The notes under the pieces: model-generated | Databases searched by the model: none | What the model saw: only the letters and a program-made list of their open reading frames with translations | What the model was told of the DNA's origin: nothing | Part shown: one piece after another, positions 19,522 to 64,000 of the stretch | Layout of the letters: every line of letters begins with the position of its first letter | Position numbering within the stretch: position 1 is the first letter of the stretch | Assembly: GCA_045537905.1 (NCBI GenBank) | Contig: JAZSQJ010000053.1 | Location: forward strand, 36,295 to 100,294 | Reading direction: 5' to 3' | Source of the DNA: Eubacteriales bacterium | Lineage (GTDB): Bacteria; Bacillota; Clostridia; Oscillospirales; CAG-382 | DNA length: 64,000 nt | Made by a program: the position numbers and the translations under genes

Positions 19522-20550
19522 ATGATACGCACGGAGGGTGTAAGGCTTACAAAAAAGGATAAACAGCGTATGCGCTTGGATGCAGAACGCCCTATAAGAG
19601 TAATAGAAAACCTTGATTTCAGCAGGATATACGAGGGGGTTCCCGTTGAGGTAATCGAGGGGTATACTATTACGGATAGTGACACCTCGGAGTGTTTTGC
19701 GGTGTTCAAAATTCAAAACACGGGTGAAAAGGATATAAAGGCGTTGGATGTACGCCTGCTTTTGTACGAGGGTACTGCAAATATCCCCACCAAGCGTCTG
19801 GACTTTACCTATACAGCCGCCGACCACAAATGGGGCAGGCGTAGCTTTGAGGGCGACGGGGAACCAAGCCTTTTGCAAAAGCTTGGTATTAAGGATATAG
19901 TTCTTCCTGCCAACATCCGCCACGGTGAAAGCTTTGGCGAGGGCGTTTTTATCCCTATCCCAAAAAACTATTGCCGTAAGCTGGAGTTTGAGATACGCAC
20001 TATCCATTTTGCTGACAACAGCTCTATGACCGTAAACATAATAAGCGGCAAAAAGTATACCTTCTTCCGTGAGCTGGACGAGGATATGCGCTACGCCTAC
20101 AGGAAGATGAACGTTTTTGCCAGAGCAGAGGAGGAGCATCCCATCAAGCTTATACCTCAGGCAACGGACAAGGTATGGCTGTGCTGCTGCGGCAGAAAAA
20201 ACCTTGTAAGTGCCCCTACCTGTGCCGACTGCGGCAGGGAAAAGGATTGGCAGCTTCAGAATATAACGGAAAAGTCTTTGGAAAGAGAGCTGGACGGTAT
20301 CCGTGCCTCCGGCGACCCCGAGTTTATCCACCGTCACCGTGTACAGGCAGGTAAACAGCTTGTTATTGAAAGCGACGAGGAGCGTAAGAAGAAGGCAAAG
20401 GCCTTTGAAGAAACTCTGGAAAAGCTGGCAGAGCAGGAGCGTATAAAACGCCACAACCAAAAGATGATACTGCCCAAAATACTGCTGTGGGTAGCCAGCA
20501 TCTACGGACTTATTTACCTGTTCCAAAGCTTTCTTGACAGCCAGATGTAA
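19522..20550 (+). CDS. Hypothetical tail-anchored protein with internal zinc ribbon
   Basis: RBS GGGAGGAGG lies about 10 nt upstream. CCCGRKNLVSAPTCADCG is a zinc-ribbon motif, followed by a coiled Lys/Glu-rich segment and a single C-terminal TM (ILPKILLWVASIYGLIYLF). Confidence 0.65.
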   Translation: MIRTEGVRLTKKDKQRMRLDAERPIRVIENLDFSRIYEGVPVEVIEGYTITDSDTSECFAVFKIQNTGEKDIKALDVRLLLYEGTANIPTKRLDFTYTAADHKWGRRSFEGDGEPSLLQKLGIKDIVLPANIRHGESFGEGVFIPIPKNYCRKLEFEIRTIHFADNSSMTVNIISGKKYTFFRELDEDMRYAYRKMNVFARAEEEHPIKLIPQATDKVWLCCCGRKNLVSAPTCADCGREKDWQLQNITEKSLERELDGIRASGDPEFIHRHRVQAGKQLVIESDEERKKKAKAFEETLEKLAEQERIKRHNQKMILPKILLWVASIYGLIYLFQSFLDSQM

Positions 20551-20638
20551 AAAAGTTTTTAGTTTTTCATAGGAAAATCCCTTTTTCAGTTGTATAAAGG
20601 ACAGATGTAGGCAATGCATCAATAAGGAGGTGCGAAAA

Positions 20639-22378
20639 ATGAAAAGACTGTTTACTATATTAGTGGCACTTGTTATGTGCCTTGGCACGTTTTCCGTATC
20701 AGCATCGGAGGAGACGCCGTGGAACGCCGAAAACAGTATACTTGTAACCGTAAGCACGGCTACCGATAAGGAGTTTTTGGAGACAGACTTTCCTGAGGTT
20801 GACTGTAAAGAGGTAACCGTGGCAAGCAAAAAGACAGAAAACGGCGCCTTTATCTATCAGCTTATACTGGAAGTAGGCGCAAGCAAAAGTCTTAAACAGT
20901 ATATTGAGGCGGTAAAAGAAAATCCTGTAGTAACAGAGGCGGAAAGAAACAGCTATTGTTATCTGCAGCCCATACTTACCCTTGACAAGCAAAGCATTAC
21001 CTTATTTGTAGGGGAAACGGCTGAAGTAAACATCGAAAGCTTTGAGACCTATAACCCCAGCTTTCTTTACCACGGCGTTGTATTCAGCGTAGACCCTGCG
21101 GCTTTTGACATCGGTGCACAAAACTTTGGTATTGACGTTTATCCTTTGATAAGAGAGCCCGAATACTATGGCGATATTTGTGACGAGCTGTACGAAGGAA
21201 TCGATAACGGTATCCTTGGCGAAAAGCTTGGTACAAGTCCTATAAACAAATATTTTGCCTACGTAAGCGAAAGAGGACTAAGCGGCAATGAATGCGACAC
21301 GGTTATTTATGAGGTAAACGCCATCCTCGGTATCGACGGTGTCCTTACGGCAGAGCCCTGCGGTAACGCCGTTCCCGGTGCAATGATGCCCGTGGAGCAG
21401 TGGTCTGTAGCAGATACAAGCATTGCAGGCTTAATCCTTACCGGCGGGGAAGTGATAGAAACCATAACAGGCGGCAAGGTAGACCAAACCGCCCGTATAA
21501 CAGGCTTGTCCAAGGGTACAACCACCCTTACCCTTTATAAAAGGGACTATGCGCAGGATGCCACTGTAAGCTGCGATATCACCGTAGTTGAAGGCGGCGA
21601 CGCCAACGGCGACGGCAAAACGGACAACCTTGATGCTTCTATGGTATTGAAATACGATGCAGCCATAATCGAGCTTGATGCAGAGGCTCTTGAGAGATGC
21701 GATGTAAACAGCGACGGTGCTGTTAATAACCTTGACGCTACCGTTATCCTTAAGTACGATGCGGGTATAATCGGCAACTTACCCGATAACGGATCAAGTA
21801 ACTATGCCTTGGGTAAAACCTATATCCTTGTAAAGGACGGTAGCCTGACAAACCCCAACAGTCTTTACCTTGATTATGCCACGGGGGACGATAAGTGGTC
21901 AGACCTAAGCCTTACAAAAATGACCGACGGTATCGTTGGCGATATTACCCTGCCGGAGTACAGCGGCTCTCGTTGCGGTTTTCCCGATACTACCGTAATG
22001 CTTGTAGGCACTAACAATATTTTCGAGTATATCATTGACCTTGAGGCGTATCGCAACGATATAAAGTCTTTGGTTTTCCGCCATGTTCGTAACAGTATTC
22101 CCGGCGGAGGCAACCGTGGCTTTAGGCTTCGTCTTGCTTATGTGTCCGATGACTGCGTTAATTGGAACAGACTATCCTACGATTTAACCAAAACCGAGGT
22201 CGAGGGTGCCCCCGAGATAATGAGCAACCTTGACGGAAATATTCGCAATGTGGAGCATTTTGATTATACCTATACTCTCAGTGATGCCGCAAGCGGCAGG
22301 TATATAAGACTTCTTATCACGTCTGACGGCGGTTATGTTACCCAGCTTGAGGAGATTGAAGTTTATGGTGTTCAGTAA
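20639..22378 (+). CDS. Secreted protein: unknown N-domain, Ig-like (Big_2-like) domain, internal dockerin, C-terminal F5/8 type C (discoidin)-like domain
   Basis: Start set at ATG 20639 (AAGGAGG 8 nt upstream). A signal peptide is present. Dockerin GDANGDGKTDNLDASMVLKYDAAII...DVNSDGAVNNLDATVILKYDAGII is encoded at about 21594-21777. The C-terminus ...GRYIRLLITSDGGYVTQLEEIEVYGVQ is typical of discoidin domains. Confidence 0.75.
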   Translation: MKRLFTILVALVMCLGTFSVSASEETPWNAENSILVTVSTATDKEFLETDFPEVDCKEVTVASKKTENGAFIYQLILEVGASKSLKQYIEAVKENPVVTEAERNSYCYLQPILTLDKQSITLFVGETAEVNIESFETYNPSFLYHGVVFSVDPAAFDIGAQNFGIDVYPLIREPEYYGDICDELYEGIDNGILGEKLGTSPINKYFAYVSERGLSGNECDTVIYEVNAILGIDGVLTAEPCGNAVPGAMMPVEQWSVADTSIAGLILTGGEVIETITGGKVDQTARITGLSKGTTTLTLYKRDYAQDATVSCDITVVEGGDANGDGKTDNLDASMVLKYDAAIIELDAEALERCDVNSDGAVNNLDATVILKYDAGIIGNLPDNGSSNYALGKTYILVKDGSLTNPNSLYLDYATGDDKWSDLSLTKMTDGIVGDITLPEYSGSRCGFPDTTVMLVGTNNIFEYIIDLEAYRNDIKSLVFRHVRNSIPGGGNRGFRLRLAYVSDDCVNWNRLSYDLTKTEVEGAPEIMSNLDGNIRNVEHFDYTYTLSDAASGRYIRLLITSDGGYVTQLEEIEVYGVQ

Positions 22379-22387
22379 AAATAATTA

Positions 22388-22426
22388 AAACAGGGGCGAC
22401 GCATTTTCGGCGTCGCCCTGTTTTTT
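22388..22426 (+). terminator. Rho-independent terminator
   Basis: AAACAGGGGCGACGC-loop-GGCGTCGCCCTGTTT followed by TTTTTT. Confidence 0.9.
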
Positions 22427-22470
22427 ATCACCAAAAATGTAAATTTTTTATAAGCCAACGGGTTTTTTTC

Positions 22471-22499
22471 TTGAAAAAGCTTTTCGCATCCTGTATAAT
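22471..22499 (+). promoter_or_regulatory. Sigma-A type promoter of 22536..23675
   Basis: TTGAAA (22471-22476), 17-nt spacer, TATAAT (22494-22499). Confidence 0.7.
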
Positions 22500-22535
22500 G
22501 TAGGCGTAAACAAACACCAAAAGGAGGACTTAGTA

Positions 22536-23675
22536 ATGAAAAGACTGCTTGCGTGCTTTATAGCGCTTATAATGACGGCTTGTTCCTTTTCCGTAGCCGC
22601 TGATGACGGCGTTTCCTGGAACGGGCAGAACAGCATACTTGTAACCGTAAGCACCGCTACCGACAAGGTTTTTACTCCCGAGGATTTTCCCGAGTTGGAC
22701 TGTGTGGCAGTAACGGTAGCGAGCAAATGGGTGGAGACCGACGGATTTAGCTATGAGCTGATACTTCAGCTTGACAACGCAGAGGGCAACCTTAAGGACG
22801 AGATGGATAAGGCGCTAAAAAACGCAAACGTAACTGCGGTAAGAAGAAATCTGTACGATTATCTGGACCCCGTTCTGATTCTTGACAAAAGCTCTGTCAC
22901 CATCCGCGTGGGTGAGTCTGCCGATGTTAATATCGACTATTTCAACACCTACAACAGCGGTCATTTTTATTACGGAGTTATCTTTTCTATTGACGAAAGC
23001 GTGGATATCAGCGCTGCAAACACCGATACCTTTGGCTTTGATTTCCGTCCCATAAACGGCGTAACCGACGTGCATAACCTCTACGACGCTTTGTATAACG
23101 AGTATTATGAGGGTGACCTGGTTGGCGAAACGTTTGAGGAAAGCACCATCAACAGGTACTACGTTTCCGTAGAGCAATACGGTATCGGCGGTGAGGATGC
23201 TTATAAGATTATAGAGGCGGTTAACAACGTGCTGTCCAAGGACGGTGTTATTGCCGCAGAGCCCTTCAGCATAGAGTATCCCTGTGCAAGGATGCCCAGC
23301 GAGCAGTGGACTGTTGCCGACAACATTATCTCCCTCAGCCTTTCCGGCGGTAATCCCGTGGGCATACCCGAAAACCTTATAGGACAGACCGCTACCGTAA
23401 CAGGGGTGTATACGGGCATAACCACTCTTGATCTTTCCTGTAACGATAACAGCCAGGGCGCCGCGGCAAGCTGTGTTGTGACCGTAATCAACAGCGGCGA
23501 CGCCAACTCCGACGGTAAGCTTAACAATATGGATGCTACCGAGGTGTTAAAGTACGATGCTGGCATAAAGGATATGTCTGCCGAAACCCTTGAAAAATGC
23601 GATATGAATAACGACGGCTACGTAAACAACCTGGATGCAACGGTGATGCTGAAATACGACGCAGGTTTGCTTTAA
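22536..23675 (+). CDS. Secreted paralogue of 20639..22378 ending in a dockerin (no discoidin domain)
   Basis: The N-terminus ...WNGQNSILVTVSTATDKVFTPEDFPELDCVAVTVASK aligns by eye with ...WNAENSILVTVSTATDKEFLETDFPEVDCKEVTVASK of the upstream gene. C-terminus GDANSDGKLNNMDATEVLKYDAGI...DMNNDGYVNNLDATVMLKYDAGLL. Confidence 0.8.
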   Translation: MKRLLACFIALIMTACSFSVAADDGVSWNGQNSILVTVSTATDKVFTPEDFPELDCVAVTVASKWVETDGFSYELILQLDNAEGNLKDEMDKALKNANVTAVRRNLYDYLDPVLILDKSSVTIRVGESADVNIDYFNTYNSGHFYYGVIFSIDESVDISAANTDTFGFDFRPINGVTDVHNLYDALYNEYYEGDLVGETFEESTINRYYVSVEQYGIGGEDAYKIIEAVNNVLSKDGVIAAEPFSIEYPCARMPSEQWTVADNIISLSLSGGNPVGIPENLIGQTATVTGVYTGITTLDLSCNDNSQGAAASCVVTVINSGDANSDGKLNNMDATEVLKYDAGIKDMSAETLEKCDMNNDGYVNNLDATVMLKYDAGLL

Positions 23676-31713: not shown

Positions 31714-33378
31714 ATGCTTAAAAACGATAAACTACAGCATACGTTAAAATATATGGCTATCATCCTATGCCTGGCTGTAATGATGATGGGTATGGGGTCC
31801 TGCGGCACCTTGGATGGAATGCTTGGTTTTCTGGACGGTGACAACAACGCCAGCCGTGATATAAGCCACGACAGTAATATCAGCGATGAGGGTGACGTCA
31901 GTGTAGAGCTGCCCGACACAGCGGCTGAGCTTTTTACAAGCACCCCCTACGGTGAGGGACTGATGATAACGGGCTACACAGGTACCGATCCCTTGGTTAA
32001 AATTCCCGCCCAAATCGAAGGCAAGGCGGTGCTGGCGATCGGTGAAAAATCCATTAATGATATCGGTGACGAAAATGGCGAGGGGCTGTTTGTTACCACG
32101 GTAATAGTACCCTCTTCAGTAAACCAGATAGCCTTTTCTGCCTTTTCCGGCTGTAAAAGGCTGGAGAATTTGACGGTGCCCTTTGTTGGCGGCAGGGCGG
32201 ACAACCATAGCTATCTTGGATACGTTTTCGGCTCCTACAGTGCGGGCGGTAACAAGAACGCCGTACCTGAGAGCCTTAAGGAGGTAACGGCGGGGGGAAA
32301 CAGCCTTGCAGATGACGCCTTCAGAGGCTGCGAAAACATAAAAAGCATCACCCTTAAGGATATCGGCTCTATAGGTGCATCTGCCTTTAAGGAATGTACA
32401 GGCTTAAGCACGCTTATCATACCCGATTCGGTTACTTCTATAGGCGCTTCGGCTTTTGAGGGGTGCCGGTCTTTGGTCAATATCAGCTTGCCTTTCCTTG
32501 GCAACGGTAGCGACAGGCTGTTTTTCGGTGCGGTTTTCGGTGCGGAGGATTACAGTCAAAACCAAAGCTATGTTCCCGACACTCTCCGTAACGTAAGCAT
32601 CAGCCACACGGGGGACGTTCCCGAGGGTGCGTTCTACGAGTGCAACAATATAAGAAGCATTGTTATAAAGGGCGACGTAAGCTCCGTGGGAGAAAAGGCG
32701 TTTTACCGTTGCAGAAAGCTTAAAAACCTGGAAATGAGCCCTGTAAGCAGTGTAGCACCTTACGCCTTTGGATACTGTGCGGCTTTGGGTGAGGTAAGGC
32801 TGACCGAGGACGTAGCAAGCATTCCAGAGGGGGCGTTTTACGCTTGCTCTGCCCTGCGTAGCGTGCTTTTTGGCGAGGCGGTTAACGCTATGCCCTCCAC
32901 CGTGACCGAGCTGGGTAAGGGTGCCTTTGCCTATTGTGAAAGCCTTACGGCTATGGAGCTGTCTCCAAGCCTTACTCATATTGAGGAGCAGACCTTTTAC
33001 GGCTGTGCCTACCTTCTTTCCCTAAGCCTTTCCGATAATATAACCACCGTTGGTGACGATGCCTTTAAGGGCTGTAATAACCTTAAAACGCTTAGTCTCG
33101 GCAAGGGGATTACCGACGTGGGCGACGGTGCCTTCTCCTACTGCAGCGCCCTTAAGACCCTTGTAATTCCCAAAAACGTTACCACTCTTGGCGACTACGC
33201 CTTTGCCTATTGCAAGTACCTCACCGAGGTATCCGTTGACAACGGCAATATGGAGCTGGGCGAGGCTGTGTTTAACGGTTGTGAGGATATAGTTATTACC
33301 GTTGACCCCGACAGCAACACCTATCAGGCTCTTATCAACTCGGGTCTTGGTAACAGTAATCTTAAAGCTCCCGACTAA
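31714..33378 (+). CDS. BspA-type leucine-rich-repeat lipoprotein
   Basis: Signal peptide ending MGMGSCG (lipobox-like). It has more than 10 repeats of IP.SVT.IG..AF..C..L (for example IIPDSVTSIGASAFEGCRSLVNISLP). Confidence 0.8.
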   Translation: MLKNDKLQHTLKYMAIILCLAVMMMGMGSCGTLDGMLGFLDGDNNASRDISHDSNISDEGDVSVELPDTAAELFTSTPYGEGLMITGYTGTDPLVKIPAQIEGKAVLAIGEKSINDIGDENGEGLFVTTVIVPSSVNQIAFSAFSGCKRLENLTVPFVGGRADNHSYLGYVFGSYSAGGNKNAVPESLKEVTAGGNSLADDAFRGCENIKSITLKDIGSIGASAFKECTGLSTLIIPDSVTSIGASAFEGCRSLVNISLPFLGNGSDRLFFGAVFGAEDYSQNQSYVPDTLRNVSISHTGDVPEGAFYECNNIRSIVIKGDVSSVGEKAFYRCRKLKNLEMSPVSSVAPYAFGYCAALGEVRLTEDVASIPEGAFYACSALRSVLFGEAVNAMPSTVTELGKGAFAYCESLTAMELSPSLTHIEEQTFYGCAYLLSLSLSDNITTVGDDAFKGCNNLKTLSLGKGITDVGDGAFSYCSALKTLVIPKNVTTLGDYAFAYCKYLTEVSVDNGNMELGEAVFNGCEDIVITVDPDSNTYQALINSGLGNSNLKAPD

Positions 33379-33392
33379 CAGAAAGTGCAAGT

Positions 33393-34448
33393 ATGAAAAA
33401 ACTGATATTAATTATAACGGCTCTTGCGGTGTTGGCATTCAGTGCCTGCGGTGCTGATACGGAAAACTCTGTGAGCAAGGACTTGGTTTCGGCAGACAGC
33501 CATTCTTCTGCCGTGGTAGAGGAAAGCAGTACCGCTCCAAGCTTCTCTGCGGATAACAGCGAGGAAACCACGTCTACCGATAGCACCGAGGACAGCAGTG
33601 CTGACAGCTCTGAGGATACGGATCCCACTCTGTACAGCGGCAACTTCGGTTATAAGCTGGTAAACACGGTGGCAATGCTTTGCGACTACAAGGGCAGTGA
33701 GACCGAGCTGGAGCTTCCCTCCGAGCTGGACGGCTATACCCTTACAGCCGTAACGGACGGAGCCTTTGCAAACGATACCAAGCTGAAAAAGCTAAGCTTG
33801 TCCGATACGGTAGTTAACGTAAGCGACGGTGCCTTTAATAACTGCACTTCCCTGGAGTACGTGTATATTGGCAGCAGCGTTGCGGCGTTGAGCATTACCG
33901 CCTTCGAGGGCTGCAGCACCTTGAAGGAGATAGAGGTGTCGGGCGCAAACAAAAACTATTCCTCCCTGGACGGCATACTGTATAATGGGGACAAAACGGA
34001 GCTTGTTCGCTGTCCTGCCGCTATCGAGGAAGAAGAAATTACGGTACCCGACACCGTTGCATCGGTAGGGGAGTACGCCTTTGAAAACTGCAAGGGCGTA
34101 AAAAAGGTTATCCTGCCCGATGCCTGTGGGCTAAAGGAAGGCTCCTTCTTCTACTGTATGGATCTGGAGGAGACGGTGTTTGGCAGTGATTTGACCGAAA
34201 TTCCTGCAAAATGCTTTTTCGGCTGCGTTATGCTGAAGGAGATTAAGGTACCAAGCGGTGTAACAGCCATAGGCGACTACGCCTTTTTCGGTTGCATCAG
34301 CGCAAAAGCCGCCACCCTGCCCGAAAGCGTTACCCAAATGGGTGAAAACGTGTTCAAGTCCTGCTCTGCCCTTAAAAAGATAAGCGTAGAGGGAGAGTAT
34401 CTTAAGGAATGGTATAACGAAAAGGGCAAAGATTTTATAAATTCTTGA
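33393..34448 (+). CDS. BspA-type leucine-rich-repeat lipoprotein
   Basis: Signal peptide with lipobox LAFSAC, a Ser/Asp/Glu-rich linker, then LRR units (VPDTVASVGEYAFENCKGVKKVILP...). Confidence 0.8.
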   Translation: MKKLILIITALAVLAFSACGADTENSVSKDLVSADSHSSAVVEESSTAPSFSADNSEETTSTDSTEDSSADSSEDTDPTLYSGNFGYKLVNTVAMLCDYKGSETELELPSELDGYTLTAVTDGAFANDTKLKKLSLSDTVVNVSDGAFNNCTSLEYVYIGSSVAALSITAFEGCSTLKEIEVSGANKNYSSLDGILYNGDKTELVRCPAAIEEEEITVPDTVASVGEYAFENCKGVKKVILPDACGLKEGSFFYCMDLEETVFGSDLTEIPAKCFFGCVMLKEIKVPSGVTAIGDYAFFGCISAKAATLPESVTQMGENVFKSCSALKKISVEGEYLKEWYNEKGKDFINS

Positions 34449-35285: not shown

Positions 35286-35981
35286 ATGTCAAAAGGCATA
35301 TTGATAGCAGTAGACGGTCTGGATGGCTCCGGTAAGGAGACCCAAAGCAAGCTCCTTTGTGCTTATCTGGACAAAATGGGTATAAATAATAAGCTCGTAT
35401 CCTTTCCTACATACAAGGAGGATAGCAGTGCCTTGATAAAAATGTATCTGCGTGGAGATTTCGGCACCGACCCCGAGGCGGTAAACCCCTTTGCCGCATC
35501 CTCCTTCTACGCTATGGACAGATACTGCGCCTATATGCTGGACTGGAAAAAGGACTACGACGAGGGCGCGGTTATAATCGCAAACCGTTATACTACCGCC
35601 AATCTGGTGCATCAGATGTCCAAGCTTCCAAAGGAGCAGTGGGACAGCTTTGGCAAATGGCTTCTTGACTATGAGTTTTCTTTGTTGGGGCTTCCTGCTC
35701 CCGACGGAGTAATATATCTGTGTCTGCCTCCCAAAGCCTCCTCCTCTCTTGTGCAAAAGCGTTGCGAGGATACGGGTGCGGTAAAGGACATCCACGAAAA
35801 CAATGCAAAGCACCTGGAGGACAGCTACAGGGCGGCGTTGTACGCATCGGACAAATACGGCTGGAACAGAGTAGACTGCGTAAAGGATGAGGTTCTACGC
35901 AGTATCGACGATATACACGGACAGGTCTGCCATATAGTAAACGGCATTCTGGCAGACGGTGGTATTTTCAAAGGAGAATAG
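35286..35981 (+). CDS. tmk: Thymidylate kinase family protein
   Basis: P-loop VDGLDGSGKETQ. Start set at ATG 35286; the track ORF begins at GTG 35277. Confidence 0.75.
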   Translation: MSKGILIAVDGLDGSGKETQSKLLCAYLDKMGINNKLVSFPTYKEDSSALIKMYLRGDFGTDPEAVNPFAASSFYAMDRYCAYMLDWKKDYDEGAVIIANRYTTANLVHQMSKLPKEQWDSFGKWLLDYEFSLLGLPAPDGVIYLCLPPKASSSLVQKRCEDTGAVKDIHENNAKHLEDSYRAALYASDKYGWNRVDCVKDEVLRSIDDIHGQVCHIVNGILADGGIFKGE

Positions 35982-35985
35982 ATGG

Positions 35986-36531
35986 ATGAAAGCGTTAATT
36001 TTACTTGCAAACGGCTTTGAGGAATGTGAGGCGCTTACTCCCGCCGACGTGCTGAGAAGGGCAGGGGTAGACGTAAGCCTTGTTTCTATAGGTAACGAGC
36101 TTAAGGTGACGGGTGCCCATAATATAAGCGTGATGGCAGACGTGCTGCTGAGTGATATTGATACGTCTGCTCCCGATGTGCTTATTCTTCCGGGTGGACT
36201 TAAGGGTACCGAGGCTCTTGGTGAGTCCTATCAGGTAAAAGCCCTTATAGAAAACAGTGTTTCTGCAGGCAGCTACGTTGCGGCAATCTGTGCGGCACCC
36301 TCCATTCTGGGCAAGATGGGTTATCTTGACGGCAGGGATATAGCCTGCTATCCCGGCTTTGAAAAAAATATGGAGCAGGCAAACCGTACGGGTGAAAAGG
36401 TAGAGGTAGACGATATATTCATTACCGCAGAGGGTATGGGTGTATCGCTGGAGTTTGCCCTTAAGATTACGGAGCTTTTGTTTGGCACGGCAGTGGCAGG
36501 CGATATAGCAGAGCAGATAAGAAAGGCGTAG
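35986..36531 (+). CDS. DJ-1/PfpI family protein
   Basis: Start set at ATG 35986 (MKALILLANGFEECE, AAAGGAG 9 nt upstream). Nucleophile-elbow Cys in AAICAAPS. Confidence 0.8.
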   Translation: MKALILLANGFEECEALTPADVLRRAGVDVSLVSIGNELKVTGAHNISVMADVLLSDIDTSAPDVLILPGGLKGTEALGESYQVKALIENSVSAGSYVAAICAAPSILGKMGYLDGRDIACYPGFEKNMEQANRTGEKVEVDDIFITAEGMGVSLEFALKITELLFGTAVAGDIAEQIRKA

Positions 36532-39168: not shown

Positions 39169-40404
39169 ATGAAACGCTGTGAGATACTTTCCCCCGCAGG
39201 GGATTTGGAAAAGCTTCAGTTTGCCGTGTCCTACGGGGCAGACGCAGTTTATATGGCTATGAAAAGCTACGGTATGCGTGCCTCGGCAGGCAACTTTGAT
39301 ATGGCAGAGCTGGAACAGGGGCTGGACTTTGCCCACGCAAGGGGCGCAAGGGTGTACTGCACTCTTAACACTATGCCAAGGGACAGGGAATTTGCAGGAC
39401 TGTCCCGTATGCTTGAGGGCTTTGGCAGTGTACGTCCCGACGCCTTTATAGTAACAGACCCCGGTGTTATAAGCCTGGTTAAGGAAAAGCTTCCTAATGC
39501 AGAGCTGCATCTTTCCACCCAATGCTCTACGGTAAACAGCCGTTCCTGCCGTTTTTGGTACGATAATTTCGGCATAAAGCGTGTGGTGCTGGCAAGGGAG
39601 CTGACACTGGAGGAGATAAGGGAGATAAGGCGGAATATACCCGAGGATATGGAAATAGAGTGCTTTGTCCACGGGGCAATGTGCGTGTCCTATTCGGGCA
39701 GGTGCTTGCTTTCCAACTATGCCACGGGTAGAGACGCCAACCGTGGAATGTGTGCCCAGCCTTGCCGTTGGCAGTACAATATGTCCGACGTAAGGGACGG
39801 ACTGCCCCTTTACAGTGCAGAGCAGACCGAGGAGGGTACCTATGCCTTTTCCTCCAAGGATTTGTGTATGGTAGAGCATATACCCGAGCTGGTTGAGGCA
39901 GGCATAAACAGCTTTAAGATAGAGGGCAGGATGAAAAGCGCCTACTACACGGCGGCGGTTACAAACGCCTACCGTATGGCATACGATAGCTATGTCAAGG
40001 ACCCCGCAGGCTTTGTTACCGACCCAAGCTGGAAAAAGGAGACGGAGAGCGTAAGCCACAGAGAGTACGATACGGGCTTCTATTTCACCCCTCCCCATCA
40101 GGCGGCACAGGTTTGCAAGGAAAACGTGTACTTAAACGATAGGGCGTATCTTGCCACTGTCAGCGAGTACGACGAGGAAACGGGTCTTGCCAGGTGCATC
40201 CAGCGTAACAAGTTCTGCGTAGGCGACAGGGTACAGCTTCTCAGTCCCTCCACCTGCGGCAGGGACGTGCTTATAGAAAAGCTGTACGATGAAAATATGC
40301 AAGAGATAGAAAGTGTCCCCCACGCCAAGCAGGTGTTTTACGTACCCCTTAAGGGTGCAAAAAAGTGGGACATAATAAGATGCGGTGATACAAATGTTAA
40401 ATAA
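39169..40404 (+). CDS. Peptidase U32 family protein
   Basis: EILSPAGDLEKLQFAVSYGADAVYMA at the N-terminus, Cys-rich CVSYSGRCLLSN...CAQPCR. It follows mltG, as in the yrrL-yrrNO arrangement of Bacillus. Confidence 0.85.
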   Translation: MKRCEILSPAGDLEKLQFAVSYGADAVYMAMKSYGMRASAGNFDMAELEQGLDFAHARGARVYCTLNTMPRDREFAGLSRMLEGFGSVRPDAFIVTDPGVISLVKEKLPNAELHLSTQCSTVNSRSCRFWYDNFGIKRVVLARELTLEEIREIRRNIPEDMEIECFVHGAMCVSYSGRCLLSNYATGRDANRGMCAQPCRWQYNMSDVRDGLPLYSAEQTEEGTYAFSSKDLCMVEHIPELVEAGINSFKIEGRMKSAYYTAAVTNAYRMAYDSYVKDPAGFVTDPSWKKETESVSHREYDTGFYFTPPHQAAQVCKENVYLNDRAYLATVSEYDEETGLARCIQRNKFCVGDRVQLLSPSTCGRDVLIEKLYDENMQEIESVPHAKQVFYVPLKGAKKWDIIRCGDTNVK

Positions 40405-41050
40405 ACTCAATCACAGAATATGCGTTATCTGCGGCCACTACGGTGCAGGTAAAACAAACGTGGCGGTAAACCTGGCAAAGGAAGGGGCAAAACAAGGCAA
40501 AAAGGTCTGCATAGCAGATTTTGACGTGGTAAACCCCTACTTCCGCACTGCCGATAATAAGGCAGAGCTGGAGGGTCTGGGCATCCGCTGCATAATTCCT
40601 CAGTACGCCAATACCAACGTGGATATCCCCTCCATACCGGCAGAGTTTCAGTCTGTATTCGTAAGTGACGAGCTTTGCATAATAGACGTGGGTGGAGATG
40701 ACGGAGCCATAGCGCTCTCCACCTATAAGGAACGCTTTAAGGACTGCGGCTACGATATGCTTTACGTCTACAACAAAAGCCGTCCTCTTATCTCTGAGAT
40801 AGAGGAGGCGGTGGAGTCCGTAGGGTATATACAGGCAATGTCGGGTATGGAGATAAGCTGGCTGGTAAACAACACCAACCTGGGTGAGGAAACCACGGAA
40901 AAAACGGTTAAGGACGGGTACAACGCCTGTCTGGAGCTGTCAAAGCGTACAGGCATCCCCTTAATGGGCAGTACGGTCTTCAAGGGCGTGGCTTGCCGTG
41001 ACGTGGGCGATGTACTGTATATGGAAAACGCTACCAAGCAATTATTTTAA
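40394..41050 (+). CDS. P-loop NTPase (MinD/ParA/CobQ-like fold), function unknown
   Basis: Start set at ATG 40394. Walker A CGHYGAGKTN, Walker B-like LCIIDVGGDD. Confidence 0.6.
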   Translation: MLNKLNHRICVICGHYGAGKTNVAVNLAKEGAKQGKKVCIADFDVVNPYFRTADNKAELEGLGIRCIIPQYANTNVDIPSIPAEFQSVFVSDELCIIDVGGDDGAIALSTYKERFKDCGYDMLYVYNKSRPLISEIEEAVESVGYIQAMSGMEISWLVNNTNLGEETTEKTVKDGYNACLELSKRTGIPLMGSTVFKGVACRDVGDVLYMENATKQLF

Positions 41051-41085: not shown

Positions 41086-41304
41086 ATGAACAGGGTAAGC
41101 TTTAACACAGACCTTTGTAAGGGCTGTGGACTTTGCGTAGGTGCCTGTCCCAGACACATTATCGCACTTGACACCTCTGCTCTCAATGCAAAGGGTTATC
41201 ATCCCGCACAGGTAACCGATATGGCACAGTGCATCGCTTGTGCTATGTGTGCTACTATGTGTCCCGATGTAGTAATTACAGTAGAGAAAGGAAGTGAGAA
41301 ATAA
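41086..41304 (+). CDS. 2-oxoacid:ferredoxin oxidoreductase delta subunit (2x[4Fe-4S] ferredoxin)
   Basis: 72 aa with CKGCGLCVGACP and CIACAMCATMCP. RBS AAAGGAAG. Confidence 0.85.
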   Translation: MNRVSFNTDLCKGCGLCVGACPRHIIALDTSALNAKGYHPAQVTDMAQCIACAMCATMCPDVVITVEKGSEK

Positions 41305-42236
41305 TGGCTGAAAAAATGCTTATGAAGGGTAACGAGGTTATAGGCGAGGCTGCTATCCGTGCAGGCTGCCGTTATTTCTTCGGTTATCCCATCACCCCTC
41401 AGACCGAGCTGTCTGAGTATCTTGCTAAGAAAATGCCCAAGGTTGGCGGTCTTTGCCTTCAGGCAGAAAGTGAAGTTTCTGCTATCAATATGGTTCTTGG
41501 CTGTACCGCTTCCGGCGAGCGTGCCTTTACCTCTTCCTCTTCCCCCGGGGTAAGCCTTAAGAGCGAGGGCGTTTCCTACATAATCGGCTCCGACCTTCCC
41601 TGCGTTATCGTTAACGTACAGCGCGGCGGTCCCGGTCTTGGCGGCATCCAGCCTGCCCAGTCCGATTATCTTCAGGCAACCAAGGCTTTAGGTCACGGCG
41701 ACCAGCACTTTGTTGTGCTTGCTCCTGCTTACGTACAGGAAATAGCTACCCTTATGGGTGAGGCTTTTGATATAGCAGACATCTACCGTACCCCCGTTAT
41801 GCTTCTTGCAGACGGTGCTTTGGGTCAGATGATGGAGCCCGTTGACTTTGAGGCAAAGCGTGAGCGTGCTCTTCCCGAAAAGACCTGGGCGGCCTGCGGT
41901 CACGGCAACAAGCGTAAGCACAACATCGTAAACTCCTTGTATATCGACCCCGAAACTCTTGAGAACACCGTTCTTGCCCGTTACGAAAGATATAAGGCAA
42001 TAGAGGAAAACGAGGTTCAGTACGACGAGTATATGACCGAGGATGCGGAGATTTGCGTAGTAGCCTACGGCATCACTGCAAGAATAGTAAAGACTGCAGT
42101 TAAAGCGGCAAGAGCTATGGGTATCAAGGTTGGCTTGTTCCGTCCCATCACCCTTTGGCCCTACCCCAAGAAGCAGCTTGCAGAACTTGCCGACAAGGTT
42201 GACAAGTTCCTCGTTGTTGAGATGAATATGGGATAG
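41304..42236 (+). CDS. 2-oxoacid:ferredoxin oxidoreductase alpha subunit, N-terminal 310 codons, ended by an in-frame TAG
   Basis: The ATG overlaps the delta stop (TAATG). GNEVIGEAAIRAGCRYFFGYPITPQTE is typical of the alpha subunit. It ends ...LVVEMNMG-TAG, where the family normally continues with Gln. Confidence 0.8.
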   Translation: MAEKMLMKGNEVIGEAAIRAGCRYFFGYPITPQTELSEYLAKKMPKVGGLCLQAESEVSAINMVLGCTASGERAFTSSSSPGVSLKSEGVSYIIGSDLPCVIVNVQRGGPGLGGIQPAQSDYLQATKALGHGDQHFVVLAPAYVQEIATLMGEAFDIADIYRTPVMLLADGALGQMMEPVDFEAKRERALPEKTWAACGHGNKRKHNIVNSLYIDPETLENTVLARYERYKAIEENEVQYDEYMTEDAEICVVAYGITARIVKTAVKAARAMGIKVGLFRPITLWPYPKKQLAELADKVDKFLVVEMNMG

Positions 42237-42368
42237 ATGGTAGACGACGTTAAGGTTGCTACGGACTGCAAGCGTCCCGTAGAGTTCTTTGGCAGAACAG
42301 GCGGCGTTATCCCTACTCCCGACGAAATCCTTGCAAAGATAGTAGAAATGAACGGAGGTGCCAAGTAA
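42237..42368 (+). CDS. C-terminal 43-codon segment of the oxidoreductase alpha subunit (same frame, starts with the ATG directly after the TAG)
   Basis: MVDDVKVATDCKRPVEFFGRTGGVIPTPDEILAKIVEMNGGAK-TAA matches the usual alpha-subunit C-terminus. It is below the ORF-track size cutoff. Confidence 0.6.
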   Translation: MVDDVKVATDCKRPVEFFGRTGGVIPTPDEILAKIVEMNGGAK

Positions 42369-42369
42369 T

Positions 42370-43125
42370 ATGGTAGTATTTGAAAAGCCTAAGGCGCTTA
42401 CAGACGTACCCTTCCACTATTGTCCCGGCTGTACCCACGGTATAGTACACAGACTTGTGGCAGAGGTTATTGACGAAATGGGTATCGAGGGCGAAACCGT
42501 AGGTGTCGCATCGGTAGGCTGTTCCGTTTTCTCCTACAACTATTTCGGCTGTGATATGGTACAGGCTCCCCACGGCCGTGCTCCTGCCGTTGCAACGGGT
42601 ATTAAGCGCAGCCATCCCGATAACTTTGTATTCACCTACCAGGGCGACGGCGACCTTGCCGCAATCGGCACGGCGGAAACCGTTCACGTTGGTGCAAGAG
42701 GCGAAAATATAACGATAATCTTCATCAATAACGCAATCTACGGTATGACAGGCGGTCAGATGGCTCCTACAACTCTGCTTGGTCAGGTAACAACCACCTC
42801 TCCCTACGGCAGAAAGAAGGAGATACAGGGCAACCCCATCCGTGTTGCAGAGATGATATCCACTCTTGACGGTGCCGCTTACGTTGAGCGTGTAGCCGTT
42901 GACTGTGTAAAGAACGTTCGCAACGCTAAAAAGGCAATAAGAAAAGCCTTCGAGGCACAGAAAAACAAAAAAGGTCTTAGCCTTATAGAGGTTCTGTCCA
43001 CCTGTCCCACCAACTGGGGTATGTCTCCCGAGAAGTCTCTTGAGTGGCTTCGCGAGAATATGATGGCACACTATCCTCTTGGCGTATATAAGGATATAAC
43101 AGAGGAGGCTGGCGATAATGAGTAA
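42370..43125 (+). CDS. 2-oxoacid:ferredoxin oxidoreductase beta subunit (TPP-binding)
   Basis: Start set at ATG 42370 (GGAGGTG RBS). CPGCTHG and GDGD...IGT.E TPP motifs are present. Confidence 0.88.
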   Translation: MVVFEKPKALTDVPFHYCPGCTHGIVHRLVAEVIDEMGIEGETVGVASVGCSVFSYNYFGCDMVQAPHGRAPAVATGIKRSHPDNFVFTYQGDGDLAAIGTAETVHVGARGENITIIFINNAIYGMTGGQMAPTTLLGQVTTTSPYGRKKEIQGNPIRVAEMISTLDGAAYVERVAVDCVKNVRNAKKAIRKAFEAQKNKKGLSLIEVLSTCPTNWGMSPEKSLEWLRENMMAHYPLGVYKDITEEAGDNE

Positions 43126-43651
43126 TATTTTGCTTGCAGGCTTCGGCGGTCAGGGTATACTTTTTGCAGGTAAACAGATAGTTTTGGCAGGTATGAACAG
43201 CGGCAAATACGTTAGCTGGCTGCCTTCCTACGGTCCCGAAATGCGTGGTGGTACCTGTAACTGCAGCGTTATTGTTGAGGACGAGCCTATCGGCAGCCCT
43301 CTCGTAACCAAGCCCGACATCCTTCTGGCGTTCAACACCCCCTCCTTTGATAAGTTTGAGAGCAAGGTAGTTAAGGGCGGTATGATTTTCGTAGACAGCT
43401 CTCTCGTTGCCAAAAAGTCTGAAAGAGACGATATACAGGCTTTCTATATCCCCGCAACCGAGCTTGCTAACGAAAACGGTCTTACCGGTATGGCTAACGT
43501 AATTATGCTTGGCTATATCATTAAAAAGAGCGGTCTGTTTGCAGAGGACTACTTCAAGCAGTCCCTCTCCTCGGGTATCCCTGCCCACAAGGCACACCTT
43601 GCCGAGGTAAACAACAAGGCGTTGGATATAGGCTTTAATTATGAAGGCTAA
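43118..43651 (+). CDS. 2-oxoacid:ferredoxin oxidoreductase gamma subunit
   Basis: ILLAGFGGQGILFAGK at the N-terminus and SYGPEMRGG. Overlaps the beta subunit by 8 nt. Confidence 0.88.
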   Translation: MSNILLAGFGGQGILFAGKQIVLAGMNSGKYVSWLPSYGPEMRGGTCNCSVIVEDEPIGSPLVTKPDILLAFNTPSFDKFESKVVKGGMIFVDSSLVAKKSERDDIQAFYIPATELANENGLTGMANVIMLGYIIKKSGLFAEDYFKQSLSSGIPAHKAHLAEVNNKALDIGFNYEG

Positions 43652-44339
43652 AAGGCCTTTTGTCACCGCTGTTATTGTGGGTGCCGGTAGCGGCACCCGC
43701 ATGGGCGGTGTTAATAAAGCGCTTATAAAAATAGGCGACAAAACAGCCTTCCGTATGGTGCTTGATGCCTTTGGTGAGGCAGAGTGTATAGACGAGATAG
43801 TCGTTGTATGCCGTGATACCGAGGAAATGGCGGCGGCAAGCGAGGGCTTTGACAAAAAGCCCGTAAGCTATGCTCTTGGGGGTAAAAGCCGTACCCAGTC
43901 CGTGTTTAACGGCGTAGCGGCGGCAAGCCGCAAGGCAGAGTTTTACTGTATACACGACTGTGCCAGACCCCTTGTTACCGCCGACATAATAAACGAGGTA
44001 ACGGCGGCGGCAATAAAAACAGGGGCGGCAACAGCCTGCACCCCCGTTACGGATACCGTAAAGTACGTGGATAAGGAAAAGGGCACCGTATACACCCCCA
44101 ACCGCAGTAACCTGTTGGCGCTTCAAACCCCTCAGGTATTTGAGGCAAGGCTGTACACGGCAGCGGCGGCAATGGCTAAAAAGGACGGCTTTGCGGCAAC
44201 GGACGACACCGCTATAGCAGAGCACGCAGGCTTTAAGGTGGAGTACGTTATCACCGACAAAAGCAACCTTAAGCTGACAAGCGCCGAGGACGTTTTGATT
44301 GCCCGTTATATAGAACAAAAGCGAAGGAAGACAGAGTAA
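43641..44339 (+). CDS. ispD: 2-C-methyl-D-erythritol 4-phosphate cytidylyltransferase
   Basis: [13 protein letters not shown]-loop-like motif; 232 aa. Overlaps the gamma subunit by 11 nt. Confidence 0.88.
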
Positions 44340-44812
44340 TGAGAATAGGACACGGCTACGATGTGCACAGGTTAACAGAGGACAGGGCGTTGATACTGGG
44401 CGGTGTGAATATCCCGTGGGAAAAGGGTCTTATGGGGCACTCCGATGCGGACGTGCTCGTCCACGCCGTGTGCGACGCTTTGCTGGGTGCGGCGGCGTTG
44501 GGTGACATTGGCTATCACTTTCCCGACAGGGACCCTAAGTATAAGGGCATTTCCAGCATCAAGCTGTTATCTCACGTCTCCCTTTTGCTTAAAGAAAAAG
44601 GCTATGGTGTTGTTAATATAGACAGCACCCTTATTGCCCAGGCTCCTAAGCTTGCTCCCTATATCCTTGATATGAGAAGCAATATTGCGGCGGCAATCGG
44701 AATAGATACCGACGCTGTCAGCGTAAAGGCTACCACTGAGGAGCATCTGGGCTTCACAGGGCAGGGGCAGGGGATTGCCGCCCACGCCGTATGTATAATA
44801 GAAAAACTGTAA
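44339..44812 (+). CDS. ispF: 2-C-methyl-D-erythritol 2,4-cyclodiphosphate synthase
   Basis: [21 protein letters not shown]; 157 aa. TAATG overlap with ispD. Confidence 0.92.
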
Positions 44813-44823
44813 AGGAAAATTAA

Positions 44824-46098
44824 ATGGTACTACAAAGCCGCCCCATCTCCGAGGGTATAAATCTTACGGTGTTACCCACCGATAAATTCAAATCCAATCT
44901 TATGATAGTAGAACTGCGTTGCCCTCTTAAGGCAGAAACAGCTACCCACTACTCCTTGCTGACCAACGTGCTAAGCCGTTGTTGCAGGGAGTATCCAAGT
45001 CTGCGTAGCTTTAACGTTGCCCTGGAGGAGCTGTATGCGGCAGATGTAGACTCCTACGTTTCCAAAACGGGTGAGGTACAGCGTGTTCGCTTCAAGCTGT
45101 CCTGTATAGAAAACAACTACACCTACGATAAAAGCGATGTGCTGGCAGGTGCAATGCGTCTCCTGGGTGCAATGATATTTGACCCACTGCTGGAGGATGG
45201 AGCGTTTCCCGACTATGTGGTGGAGTCTGAAAAGAAAAACCTTAAAGAAGAAATCCAATCCTTAAAGGACGATAAGGGCCGCTATGCCATAACCCGCTGT
45301 GTACGCAATATGTGTGCAGAGGAGGCGTATTCCGTCTCTGCGGCAGGGGATGAAAAGGTTCTTGAGGGTATAACGGGCAGTGAGCTTAAGGCTCATTACG
45401 ATACCCTTATAAAAACCGCTCCCGTTGATATATATTTTGTGGGCAATACGGATGCCGAAACAGTGGAGGAGTATTGCAAAAGGTACCTCCCCTTCGGACC
45501 CCGTCCCTTTGCTATCTACCGGACGGAGGTTAAAGAGGGAAGCGGTGAGATAAAATACGTCACCGAGTCTGCCGATGCGGTGCAAAGCAGACTTTGTATG
45601 GGCTACCGCACGGGGATTAGCCTCTGTGACGATGAGTACGCCGCCTTGCTTCTTGCTTGCGACGTTCTTGGCTCCCCTTCAGGTAAGCTCTTTGTCAACG
45701 TGAGGGAAAAAATGGGTCTTTGCTACTATTGCAGTCCCCATCTGGACGGGGTAAAGGGTCTGCTTCTGATAAGTGCAGGCATATACGCCAAGGACAGGGA
45801 AAGGGCAGAAAAGGCAATAGAAGCGCAGATCGAACAGCTTAAGCTTGGAAACATCAGCGATAGCGAGCTTACGGCAGCCAAGGTTGCCGCCGCTACCGCT
45901 TATAAAGAGATATATGACAGTGCAGGTGCAATGATAAACTGGTTTGCCACTCGAAAGGGCATAGGTCTTGACGTTACACCTGAGATAATGGCGGAAAAAA
46001 TTGCCGCCACCACCGCCGGGGATATTGCGGCGGTTGCCCGCCGTCTCAGGGCAGATACGTTTTTTATGCTAAAGGGAGAGGGCGGTGACGAGGAATGA
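44824..46098 (+). CDS. M16 family peptidase-like protein (no HxxEH; probable non-catalytic partner)
   Basis: 424 aa with the same length and architecture as the next gene but lacking the zinc motif. ATGA overlap with the next gene. Confidence 0.7.
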   Translation: MVLQSRPISEGINLTVLPTDKFKSNLMIVELRCPLKAETATHYSLLTNVLSRCCREYPSLRSFNVALEELYAADVDSYVSKTGEVQRVRFKLSCIENNYTYDKSDVLAGAMRLLGAMIFDPLLEDGAFPDYVVESEKKNLKEEIQSLKDDKGRYAITRCVRNMCAEEAYSVSAAGDEKVLEGITGSELKAHYDTLIKTAPVDIYFVGNTDAETVEEYCKRYLPFGPRPFAIYRTEVKEGSGEIKYVTESADAVQSRLCMGYRTGISLCDDEYAALLLACDVLGSPSGKLFVNVREKMGLCYYCSPHLDGVKGLLLISAGIYAKDRERAEKAIEAQIEQLKLGNISDSELTAAKVAAATAYKEIYDSAGAMINWFATRKGIGLDVTPEIMAEKIAATTAGDIAAVARRLRADTFFMLKGEGGDEE

Positions 46099-61963: not shown

Positions 61964-62160
61964 AACAGCTGGTGGGGGACACCCCAATGGAGCAGGGTCA
62001 AAGGGTAGAGATTATCTTTTCCAACGGCGACAGGGAAAAGGGAACCTATCAGTATTCCTTTGGCTACAACCATAGCTTTGATTTGGATAAAGGCAGTACC
62101 GTGGTGCTTAGCAACCACTTTATGCGTCTTAAGGGCATAAGAGTAAAGATAATTGATTAA
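61960..62160 (+). CDS. Small hypothetical protein
   Basis: 66 aa. ATGA overlap with rnhA and GGAGGG RBS. No recognisable motif. Confidence 0.45.
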   Translation: MKQLVGDTPMEQGQRVEIIFSNGDREKGTYQYSFGYNHSFDLDKGSTVVLSNHFMRLKGIRVKIID

Positions 62161-62182
62161 TTAAAAAGGAGAATACACGGCT

Positions 62183-64000
62183 ATGAAAAGAAGTTTGGTT
62201 TTCGTTCTCACAGCGCTGCTTTTGGCGGTAAGTATGATGCTTCCTGCCAATGCCTTGCCCATTATAAGCGGCGAGACTGACGGTAGCACAACCACCATTG
62301 CCAAGGGCGTAAGCTTTACCAAGGCGGCTGTTGAGGGCAGTCCCTACGGCAAGCAGAAGTTTAATATTATAGAGTTTGACCTGGCAGAGCGTAGCCTGGA
62401 CCTTGCTATTCTTAAAAACGAGTACATTGTTAAAAAGTCCACGGTAGGCGGCTTTGTAAACGCCTACAACACCGCCCACGCCGAGGAGGGCAAGGAGGTT
62501 ATTGCCGCTGTAAACGGCGACCTTTGGATGACAGAAATCCACAGTAACGCCAATATGAGTAAAAGCGTTCTTACGGTACCTCGCGGTATGCTTATGTCTG
62601 ACGGGATAATCTACTGTTCCTCCCAGACCGTTAACGAGTCTGCCCATACCACCAACGGTGAGGGACCCGTTACCTTCTGGGCCTTTGGCATCACGGAGGA
62701 TTACGTTCCTATGCTTGGACAGCCTATCGTTAATCTGGACGTAAAAAATACCACCCAAGGTCTTAGCACCGACACTCAGGCGTATAACCGTCTTCCCGCT
62801 CCCAACACCCTGGTTATTTACGACGGCAACTGCAATTACACCAACTTTGCCCTTGACGATGCCTACGAGGTTGTACTTACCGATATAGAGGGTCAGTTCA
62901 CCTGCGGCGGCACCGTAAGCGGCACTGTTTCTGCAATATACCCCTCCAATGATGAAGCCAGCCCTGCACTGGATAATACCAGTATCGTTCTCACTGCCCG
63001 CGGGGACAAGGTGGCAACGATAAGCGGCTACCAGGTAGGCGACAAGGTTACGATAGACGTAAGCATCAGCGATGCATCGGGCAGACCTAACGATTGGTCT
63101 AAGGCTGTCCTTTCCATCGGCGGTCATATGCCCCTGGTTCTGGACGGCGTTTCTACTAACCCCTCCGGCGTTGGCAACTACCCCTCCACGATTATAGGCT
63201 ACAAAAACGACGGTAAGATAGTGTTCATACAAAACGACGGCAGACAGTCTAACTGGAGCCTTGGTCTTAATTACAATTATATGGACGACCTCGTAATGCA
63301 GCTTGGTGTAAACACCTGTATCCACCTTGACGGCGGCGGCTCCTCCACTATGATAGTAGGGGACGAGCTGGTAAATAAGCCCAGTGACGGAACCGCCCGT
63401 GCCTGCATCAACGGCATTGCCCTTGTTTCCTGTAACGAGGAGAGGGCGGCTCAGGGTGAGTTTAAGCCTAAGCTCCCCTATAGGTTTAACGCCCGTTATC
63501 TCTCCTTTGCAGAGGAAGGTGCGGCAAACGTAATCTCCTCAGGCTACGGCAACACCACCACGGTCACAGCCGTAGAGGGTGCGGTTCGTCTTAGTGCTTC
63601 CACCGACACCATCGACCCATACCAGTACTATGCAGTGTCCTCTGCTTTCAATACCCTCAGTGCCGGTCAGTACAAATACATAGTTATGAAGTATAAAACC
63701 GGCGAAAACGTAACCACTCCTTCAACCGAGCTGTTCCTCTGTGCAGGTAACATAGGCAGTCCCACCGGGGGCTACTCTGTACGCTTCCAGCACGAAACGG
63801 CAGGCCAGTGGAACACACAGATAATTGACCTTAACGGCGTTTCCTACTGGACGGGCACCATCCACGGCATCCGTCTGGACTACTTTGGCGGTAACGCCAA
63901 GGCTGGGGAATATATGGATATCGCATATATAGCCTTTGCAAAAACAGAGGCAGACGCTCTTGCTTACGCTAACGGCACGGCAGAGCTGCCTACTATCCCG
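62183..64000 (+). CDS. Secreted phosphodiester glycosidase (NAGPA/DUF2233) domain protein, 3'-truncated by the window edge
   Basis: Not in the ORF track because there is no stop in the window. I read ATG 62183 (AAAGGAG RBS) through 64000 without a stop (606 codons). Signal peptide MKRSLVFVLTALLLAVSMMLPANA. NGDLWM...IGGHMPLVLDG...CIHLDGGGSSTM is typical of the family. Confidence 0.75.
   Translation, partial: MKRSLVFVLTALLLAVSMMLPANALPIISGETDGSTTTIAKGVSFTKAAVEGSPYGKQKFNIIEFDLAERSLDLAILKNEYIVKKSTVGGFVNAYNTAHAEEGKEVIAAVNGDLWMTEIHSNANMSKSVLTVPRGMLMSDGIIYCSSQTVNESAHTTNGEGPVTFWAFGITEDYVPMLGQPIVNLDVKNTTQGLSTDTQAYNRLPAPNTLVIYDGNCNYTNFALDDAYEVVLTDIEGQFTCGGTVSGTVSAIYPSNDEASPALDNTSIVLTARGDKVATISGYQVGDKVTIDVSISDASGRPNDWSKAVLSIGGHMPLVLDGVSTNPSGVGNYPSTIIGYKNDGKIVFIQNDGRQSNWSLGLNYNYMDDLVMQLGVNTCIHLDGGGSSTMIVGDELVNKPSDGTARACINGIALVSCNEERAAQGEFKPKLPYRFNARYLSFAEEGAANVISSGYGNTTTVTAVEGAVRLSASTDTIDPYQYYAVSSAFNTLSAGQYKYIVMKYKTGENVTTPSTELFLCAGNIGSPTGGYSVRFQHETAGQWNTQIIDLNGVSYWTGTIHGIRLDYFGGNAKAGEYMDIAYIAFAKTEADALAYANGTAELPTIP

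Follow-up and report, generated by a model that had tools for sequence, protein, structure and literature searches.

An in-frame TAG at a conserved glutamine codon in the alpha subunit gene of a four-subunit 2-oxoacid:ferredoxin oxidoreductase operon from a gut Clostridia bacterium

Organization of the operon and its interrupted alpha gene

The 64-kb stretch of contig JAZSQJ010000053.1 analysed here (the window; positions 36,295–100,294 of the contig in assembly GCA_045537905.1) contains four consecutive genes that are predicted to form a delta-alpha-beta-gamma four-subunit 2-oxoacid:ferredoxin oxidoreductase (OFOR) operon with an alpha subunit of the VorB type, and the alpha gene is interrupted by an in-frame TAG codon (Table 1). 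The upstream alpha open reading frame (ORF; 41304–42236) encodes a 310-residue product and ends at the TAG at 42234–42236. An ATG occupies the next three positions (42237–42239), the local codons being GAG ATG AAT ATG GGA TAG ATG GTA GAC GAC, and the distance from stop to potential start is 0 nucleotides (nt). Beyond the TAG the alpha frame remains open for 43 codons (MVDDVK...NGGAK) before reaching a TAA at 42366–42368. The alpha codons thus sum to 354 (310 + 1 + 43), which equals the length of the closest homologues (354 amino acids, aa).

The delta gene ends in a TAA that shares 1 nt with the alpha ATG. Matches to Fer4, TPP_enzyme_C and POR identify the operon partners in adjoining, overlapping or abutting genes, and the same synteny is present in relatives. 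An earlier reading made from the letters of this DNA (the sequence-only reading) had described the alpha gene as split by an in-frame TAG with ATG next and 354 codons in total, and the delta, beta and gamma genes as intact; the sequence and the domain matches, respectively, agree with both descriptions.

Pfam searches place a complete POR_N domain (PF01855; E = 3.5e-47) in the 310-aa piece, whereas PFOR_II (PF17147) is matched there over profile positions 1–62 of 102 and reaches 1–102 of 102 with the stop bridged. The profile therefore spans the TAG, an alignment that had been proposed as a check, and the 310-aa ORF does not hold a complete domain I and domain II in one polypeptide unless the TAG is bridged. 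A premature stop relative to intact orthologues, with part of a domain lost, is one mark of a nonsense pseudogene, and both are found here. The bridged alpha subunit falls within NCBIfam family NF005507 ('3-methyl-2-oxobutanoate dehydrogenase subunit VorB') with 531.8 bits against a cut-off of 399 (profile 2–349 of 352); the 310-aa piece scores 476 bits (profile 2–309 of 352). No NCBIfam equivalog cut-off is reached by beta or gamma, and VorB is a subfamily-level name rather than an assignment of substrate (2-oxoisovalerate, 2-oxoglutarate or other).

Table 1. Features of the OFOR operon, in window coordinates.
Feature	Coordinates	Strand	Basis
Delta subunit gene, 72 aa, two [4Fe-4S] ferredoxin motifs	41086..41304	+	Pfam Fer4 / Fer4_7; identical protein in syntenic loci of related species
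Alpha gene, first 310 codons: domain I and ~60% of domain II	41304..42233	+	PF01855, PF17147, NF005507 profile 2–309 of 352
In-frame TAG at the Gln311 codon (CAG in closest relatives)	42234..42236	+	Sequence; 167/167 related loci CAG or CAA
Alpha tail, Met312 to Lys354 plus TAA, predicted remainder of domain II	42237..42368	+	Completed PFOR_II, gapless alignment, AlphaFold model
GGAGG, predicted Shine-Dalgarno sequence for beta, 11 nt ahead of the beta ATG	42354..42358	+	Sequence
Beta subunit gene, 251 aa, TPP-binding, intact	42370..43125	+	PF02775; length as in relatives
Gamma subunit gene, 177 aa, intact	43118..43651	+	PF01558 POR, profile 1–172 of 173

The glutamine codon and the following ATG in related loci

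The codon aligned with the TAG was taken from all 167 fetched loci covering the region, which span 61–99% protein identity. It is a glutamine codon in every one (156 CAG and 11 CAA), a stop is found there in 0/167, and the codon that follows is ATG in 167/167. The glycine codon on the other side is variable (GGT 96, GGC 39, GGA 24, GGG 8). The closest cluster representatives are 354 aa long with the motif region VVEMNMGQMVDDVK, and the alpha tail of the window aligns gaplessly with its homologues. Among the nearest loci, L001 and L005 read GGT CAG ATG (alpha 91% nt and 98% aa identity, with flanks of ~85–87% nt), as does L091 (alpha 90% nt and 99% aa, flanks ~82% nt). The motif of the relatives is E-M/L-N-M-G-Q-M, and solved archaeal and bacterial homologues retain the glutamine (EMNLGQL in 1yd7, ELNKGQY in 8ys5).

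These alignments indicate that one C-to-T substitution, at 42234, turned CAG into the TAG. They also indicate that the ATG after it is the conserved Met312 codon of the G-Q-M motif and not an evolved restart codon, because ATG follows the glutamine in all 167 relatives, none of which has a stop. The sequence-only reading had given a motif E(L/M)N.GQ(M/L) with a conserved glutamine and had derived the TAG from CAG by one C-to-T change; the surveyed loci, the two structures and the CAG of the closest relatives support both points. It had further stated that CAG in sister genomes would indicate a simple error, and CAG is what the orthologous loci of sister genomes carry. The anomaly would have disappeared if alpha subunits commonly ended at EMNMG with a separate small ORF behind; this arrangement occurs in 0/167 loci and the anomaly stands. 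Conservation of the junction, as expected of an evolved split gene, is likewise absent from these loci.

Occurrence of the TAG allele in public sequence

The TAG appears to be a singleton in the public sequence searched. A degenerate pattern with TAG at the site, which would catch close or moderately close relatives, has no match in the metagenome contig collection, and an exact DNA pattern of the window type has none in 185,579 species genomes (GTDB contigs, one genome per species), a set that therefore lacks the source genome itself. The 310-aa product occurs once among ~15 billion proteins, from a single NCBI contig of 100,913 bp that is evidently the source; the Gln-bridged 354-aa protein is absent from the same collection by exact look-up. 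Look-ups of the exact 310-aa, 43-aa, beta, gamma, IspD and CbiA-like proteins for the same strain or species elsewhere return no record. The exact IspF protein leads to one 1,024-bp Logan contig (L171; SRR24653778_60311) that is 99.9% identical to window positions 43890–44913 (1 mismatch in 1,024 nt), the only same-species public sequence found. Protein-guided searches for the locus recover other species only, the best being L091, L001 and L005, all with CAG, and a search for same-species fragments with the C-terminal 114 residues gives a best match of 79% identity.

A singleton of this kind could arise if the cells carry CAG and the T exists solely in the deposited consensus, as an assembly or base-calling artefact. 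Assembly errors have clearly damaged homologous operons elsewhere in public data: in L172 (ENA ERZ21831019 ctg32678l, 1771–4122) and L173 (ENA ERZ28759501 contig_26477, 2005–4377) the homologous OFOR operon is broken into small ORFs, with alpha pieces of 230+110 or 182+194 aa, beta pieces of 127+124 aa and gamma pieces of 79+99 aa. This breakage fits long-read frameshift errors rather than biology, and calls for caution when 'split' OFOR subunits are counted in metagenomes. The shattering by frameshifts in these two loci is, however, unlike the lone substitution seen here.

Use of TAG in the window

TAG ends ~10 of 55 window ORFs, and ~nine genes besides alpha terminate normally at it. The TAG-ended C-termini of a DJ-1/PfpI protein, a PALP enzyme and an Rce1-like protein are supported by complete Pfam profiles or by orthologues of equal length. 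The stops previously cited as ordinary terminators (885–887, 1919–1921, 35979–35981 and 36529–36531) are real ORF ends, and the earlier argument against a global reassignment of TAG is borne out by terminators at these supported C-termini.

A six-frame scan for stops with at least 35 open codons of coding-type codon usage on both sides returns three: the alpha TAG and two normal gene-to-gene boundaries, at 14849 and 55122, where the neighbours are unrelated. The alpha TAG is the only interrupting stop, and the ~54 other window genes look full length with no frameshifts. Reassignment would be expected to leave several in-frame TAGs in conserved genes and TAG unused as a terminator; the 64-kb window has one in-frame TAG and uses the codon as a terminator. 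Global reassignment of TAG is rejected on the ~nine terminators and the single in-frame occurrence.

The end of a thymidylate-kinase-like gene (35979–35984) is a genuine TAG-ATG hexamer, and three further genuine TAG stops are likewise followed by A; the TAG-ATG hexamer at alpha is not special in the window genome. There is no suppressor tRNA in the 64-kb window, where the sole tRNA is tRNA-Pro(GGG), and predicted RNA structure around and after the alpha stop is no better than in shuffled controls (z = 0.06).

These observations bear on whether the UAG might be read as an amino acid (glutamine) often enough to matter, be it by pyrrolysine machinery, by a TAG-to-Gln system carried by a phage, by a suppressor tRNA(CUA) or by near-cognate tRNA-Gln favoured by the context. 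Read-through with glutamine, the expected residue, would restore the exact wild-type protein, the alpha tail is intact, and near-cognate reading of UAG in Escherichia coli inserts Gln, Tyr, Lys and Trp (PMC4333366). The match to glutamine carries little weight because CAG is one of only eight codons one step from TAG and C-to-T is a common transition. With ~nine genes ending normally at TAG (one in the same TAG-ATG context and three others followed by A), one in-frame TAG among ~54 genes, and neither a suppressor tRNA nor a stimulatory RNA structure in the window, suppression or recoding is highly improbable.

The TAG-ATG junction and downstream coupling

Real genes of the window carry AGGAG, GGAGG or AAGGA ~7–12 nt before the start. 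Upstream of Met312 a Shine-Dalgarno sequence at a workable spacing is absent; the only candidate is GGGA, which ends 3 nt from the ATG and is part of the obligatory ATG-GGN (Met-Gly) coding sequence of all relatives. GGGA is rejected as a Shine-Dalgarno sequence on its 3-nt spacing and its conserved Met-Gly codons. The weight that the sequence-only reading had placed on the ATG as next codon and on the GGGA 3 nt upstream is not sustained, the one being invariant Met312 and the other Met-Gly codons. The UAG-AUG junction is a by-product of the G-Q-M motif rather than a purpose-built reinitiation site, since the ATG is invariant and the GGGA consists of Met-Gly codons too close to it, and the junction differs from the ancestral coding sequence by one base only.

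Bacterial termination-reinitiation is confined to overlaps or very short distances (PMC6728339; PMC10666635) and drops steeply with distance in E. coli and Haloferax, with losses of 5–70% at +2 nt and 80–100% at +38 nt (PMC10666635). Genes for subunits of heteromeric complexes are often translationally coupled (PMC10666635). A spacing of 0 nt is mechanistically permissive for reinitiation, yet a permissive junction is not thereby an evolved one.

A functional split gene is accordingly conceivable, in which termination at the UAG and reinitiation at the abutting AUG yield 310-aa and 43-aa chains that join non-covalently into a working domain II. The 0-nt distance (permissive per PMC6728339 and PMC10666635), the frequent coupling of heteromeric-complex genes, the undamaged tail and the modelled position of the break in a loop just before a helix (residues 311–319) are all compatible with it. 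Set against these are the absence of the junction from every related locus, the identity of the ATG as conserved Met312, and a GGGA at 3 nt where real window genes have their Shine-Dalgarno sequences at 7–12 nt. No precedent was found for a split in domain II, the short alpha fragments inspected on long contigs being assembly errors, and a very recent lesion would leave the tail just as intact. A functional split is very unlikely.

The beta ATG lies 133 nt downstream of the stop at 42236. Ribosomes that stop there would no longer couple into beta, because reinitiation falls with distance, and the GGAGG of the beta gene suggests that beta is able to start independently of alpha translation.

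Predicted consequence for the alpha subunit

An AlphaFold model was used of a protein (P0002) that is 93.5% identical to alpha, of equal length and gapless in alignment (pTM 0.81; pLDDT ~85–97 through domain II). It contains a strand at residues 301–305 (FLVVE), a loop (MNMG), a helix at 311–319, a strand at 326–329 and a helix at 339–349. On this model the stop is predicted to remove a helix, a strand and a helix from the folded alpha/beta domain II. In OFORs the interface between subunits and within the dimer is built from domains I, II and VI (PMC5020499). Normal assembly of the 310-aa chain alone is unlikely, and because domain II contributes to subunit and dimer contacts, a real TAG would probably leave the enzyme largely inactive.

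Selection on the operon and age of the stop

Codon changes in the four operon genes were assigned to branches, the sister being L001 or L005 and the outgroup L091 or L092. The window branch has 86 synonymous and 8 non-synonymous changes, against 87:6 on the sister branch; alpha alone has 35:1 and the 43-codon tail 3:0. The operon shows no relaxed selection on its own branch and no second lesion. Because the 86:8 changes match the sister lineage and decay is absent, the lesion would be either very recent or not real. More fully, the stop is apparently very young relative to a branch of ~3–5% nucleotide divergence, or absent from the cells, or else function has been kept; a very young stop, or one absent from the cells, is by far the simplest reading of the three.

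Origin of the TAG

The TAG is very probably a single-base lesion without a programmed role, whether a recent nonsense allele in the sequenced population or an error of the consensus, which is the first option that the sequence-only reading had offered (sequencing error or recent nonsense mutation) and the one favoured by CAG in the relatives, the singleton TAG and the lack of decay. In the proposed sequence of events, a C-to-T change at 42234 would turn the CAG of Gln311 into TAG, and the stop-start appearance of TAG-ATG would be a coincidence arising from the conserved Met312. If the TAG is real, the main product would be a 310-aa alpha chain without the last helix-strand-helix of domain II. 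Some residual activity could come from near-cognate insertion of glutamine at the UAG, giving wild-type alpha at a low level, or from reinitiation at the abutting AUG, giving the 43-aa tail; both routes would be incidental and need no selection.

Within the lesion reading we lean slightly towards a real recent nonsense allele over a base error in the assembly consensus, a near-even division that sequence alone cannot separate. An artefact is therefore a serious possibility, if not the favoured one. It is consistent with the singleton distribution, with the unrelaxed selection on an essential-like operon, and with a neighbouring base that also departs from the closest relatives (GGT CAG there, GGA TAG here). 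Against it, the 64-kb window has no other lesion, frameshift or interrupting stop, and since the window is otherwise clean the assembly appears good and substitution errors should be rare.

Four points sit less easily with a simple lesion. Given the strong purifying selection on alpha, a genuine knockout ought to carry a cost, a mild difficulty for a real mutation, and the cleanness of the rest of the window is a mild difficulty for an error. The only same-species sequence, L171, ends 1.6 kb short of the TAG site. The base just before the TAG is likewise not that of the closest relatives (GGA for GGT); a simple synonymous substitution may account for it, GGA being common and present in 24/167 loci, and as a sign of a two-base event it would be weak at best.

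It is improbable that the cells carry the TAG and keep a functional enzyme, whether through near-cognate tRNA-Gln that reads the UAG-A often enough to restore wild-type alpha or through restart at the abutting AUG, with the 43-residue peptide completing domain II in trans. Such a case would be a natural domain-internal split seen at its origin. The intact tail and unrelaxed selection are compatible with a tolerated TAG and equally expected from a very recent lesion or error.

Comparison with known systems

The window operon resembles VorB-type OFORs (NF005507), including the alpha subunits of Pyrococcus 2-keto acid:ferredoxin oxidoreductase (1yd7) and of 2-oxoglutarate synthase (8ys5), in its domain order, in its 354-codon length once bridged and in the tightly coupled delta-alpha-beta-gamma arrangement. 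Its protein identity to intact VorB-type orthologues in sister species is 98%, and the window copy alone has TAG in place of the Gln311 codon. With ordinary nonsense pseudogenes, or genes annotated with an 'internal stop', it shares a single premature stop, a singleton distribution and the lack of recoding signals; it differs from them in showing no secondary decay and normal purifying selection on its branch. If real, the TAG is extremely young or kept only as a minor or transient allele.

A stop abutting a start within an operon for a heteromeric complex is also found in translationally coupled gene pairs (Huber et al. 2019, PMC6728339; 2023, PMC10666635). Natural coupled pairs are conserved, have mostly 4-nt or 1-nt overlaps and separate whole proteins, whereas the alpha junction is unique to one sequence and cuts a folded domain.

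The position of the TAG at an obligatory glutamine recalls reassignment of the genetic code 15 type. TAG-to-Gln reassignment of this type occurs in some gut phages, and gives many in-frame TAGs and an avoidance of TAG terminators. Here 64 kb of chromosomal housekeeping genes contain one in-frame TAG, and ~nine genes end normally in TAG. The alpha gene is an ordinary OFOR family member with an ordinary premature stop, of an already known kind (internal-stop pseudogene or assembly error).

For annotation, the alpha gene should be flagged 'internal stop, possible pseudogene or error', and the oxidoreductase of this metagenome-assembled genome (MAG) should be counted neither as functional nor as lost without a check of the reads. 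A stop that is real and fixed would mean that a strongly conserved ferredoxin-linked 2-oxoacid oxidoreductase has only just been lost, or is barely retained, in a fibre-degrading bacterium of the gut Clostridia. A working split or read-through product would instead offer a modest natural case of a tolerated domain-internal split or a leaky amber codon, of interest for translational coupling and protein fragment complementation.

Host and other features of the window

Outside the operon the window consists of ordinary chromosomal housekeeping DNA, including glycolysis genes, IspD/IspF, a D-Ala-D-Ala ligase and an H+-pyrophosphatase. The host is an uncultured Clostridia-type fibre degrader, and the named genomes nearest to it are MAGs from the gut of sheep, yak, rabbit and similar hosts. 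Several large secreted-type proteins (7821–14485, 20630–23675 and 31714–34448) contain dockerin type I, SLH and BspA-type LRR_5 repeats, which suggests a cellulosome-like, fibre-attached lifestyle.

Two ORFs, 15588–18212 (+; 874 aa) and 62129–63325 (-; 398 aa), match no Pfam family at E <= 1e-5. Two others, 19471–20829 (-; 452 aa) and 19522–20550 (+; 342 aa), overlap almost fully on opposite strands, and the plus-strand ORF has no Pfam match.

Directly upstream of the OFOR operon is a gene for a CbiA/ParA-like P-loop ATPase of 218 aa (40394–41050, +). This gene, and the U32 peptidase and YceG genes that precede it, occupy the same place in every syntenic relative examined (L001–L010, L172 and L173); its proximity to the OFOR genes may reflect a functional link (e.g. 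Fe-S or cofactor loading) or mere synteny. On the other side of the operon, IspD and IspF are encoded by separate, abutting genes (43641–44812), as in close relatives, and in the more distant L173 (4367–5554) they form a single fused 395-aa IspDF protein.

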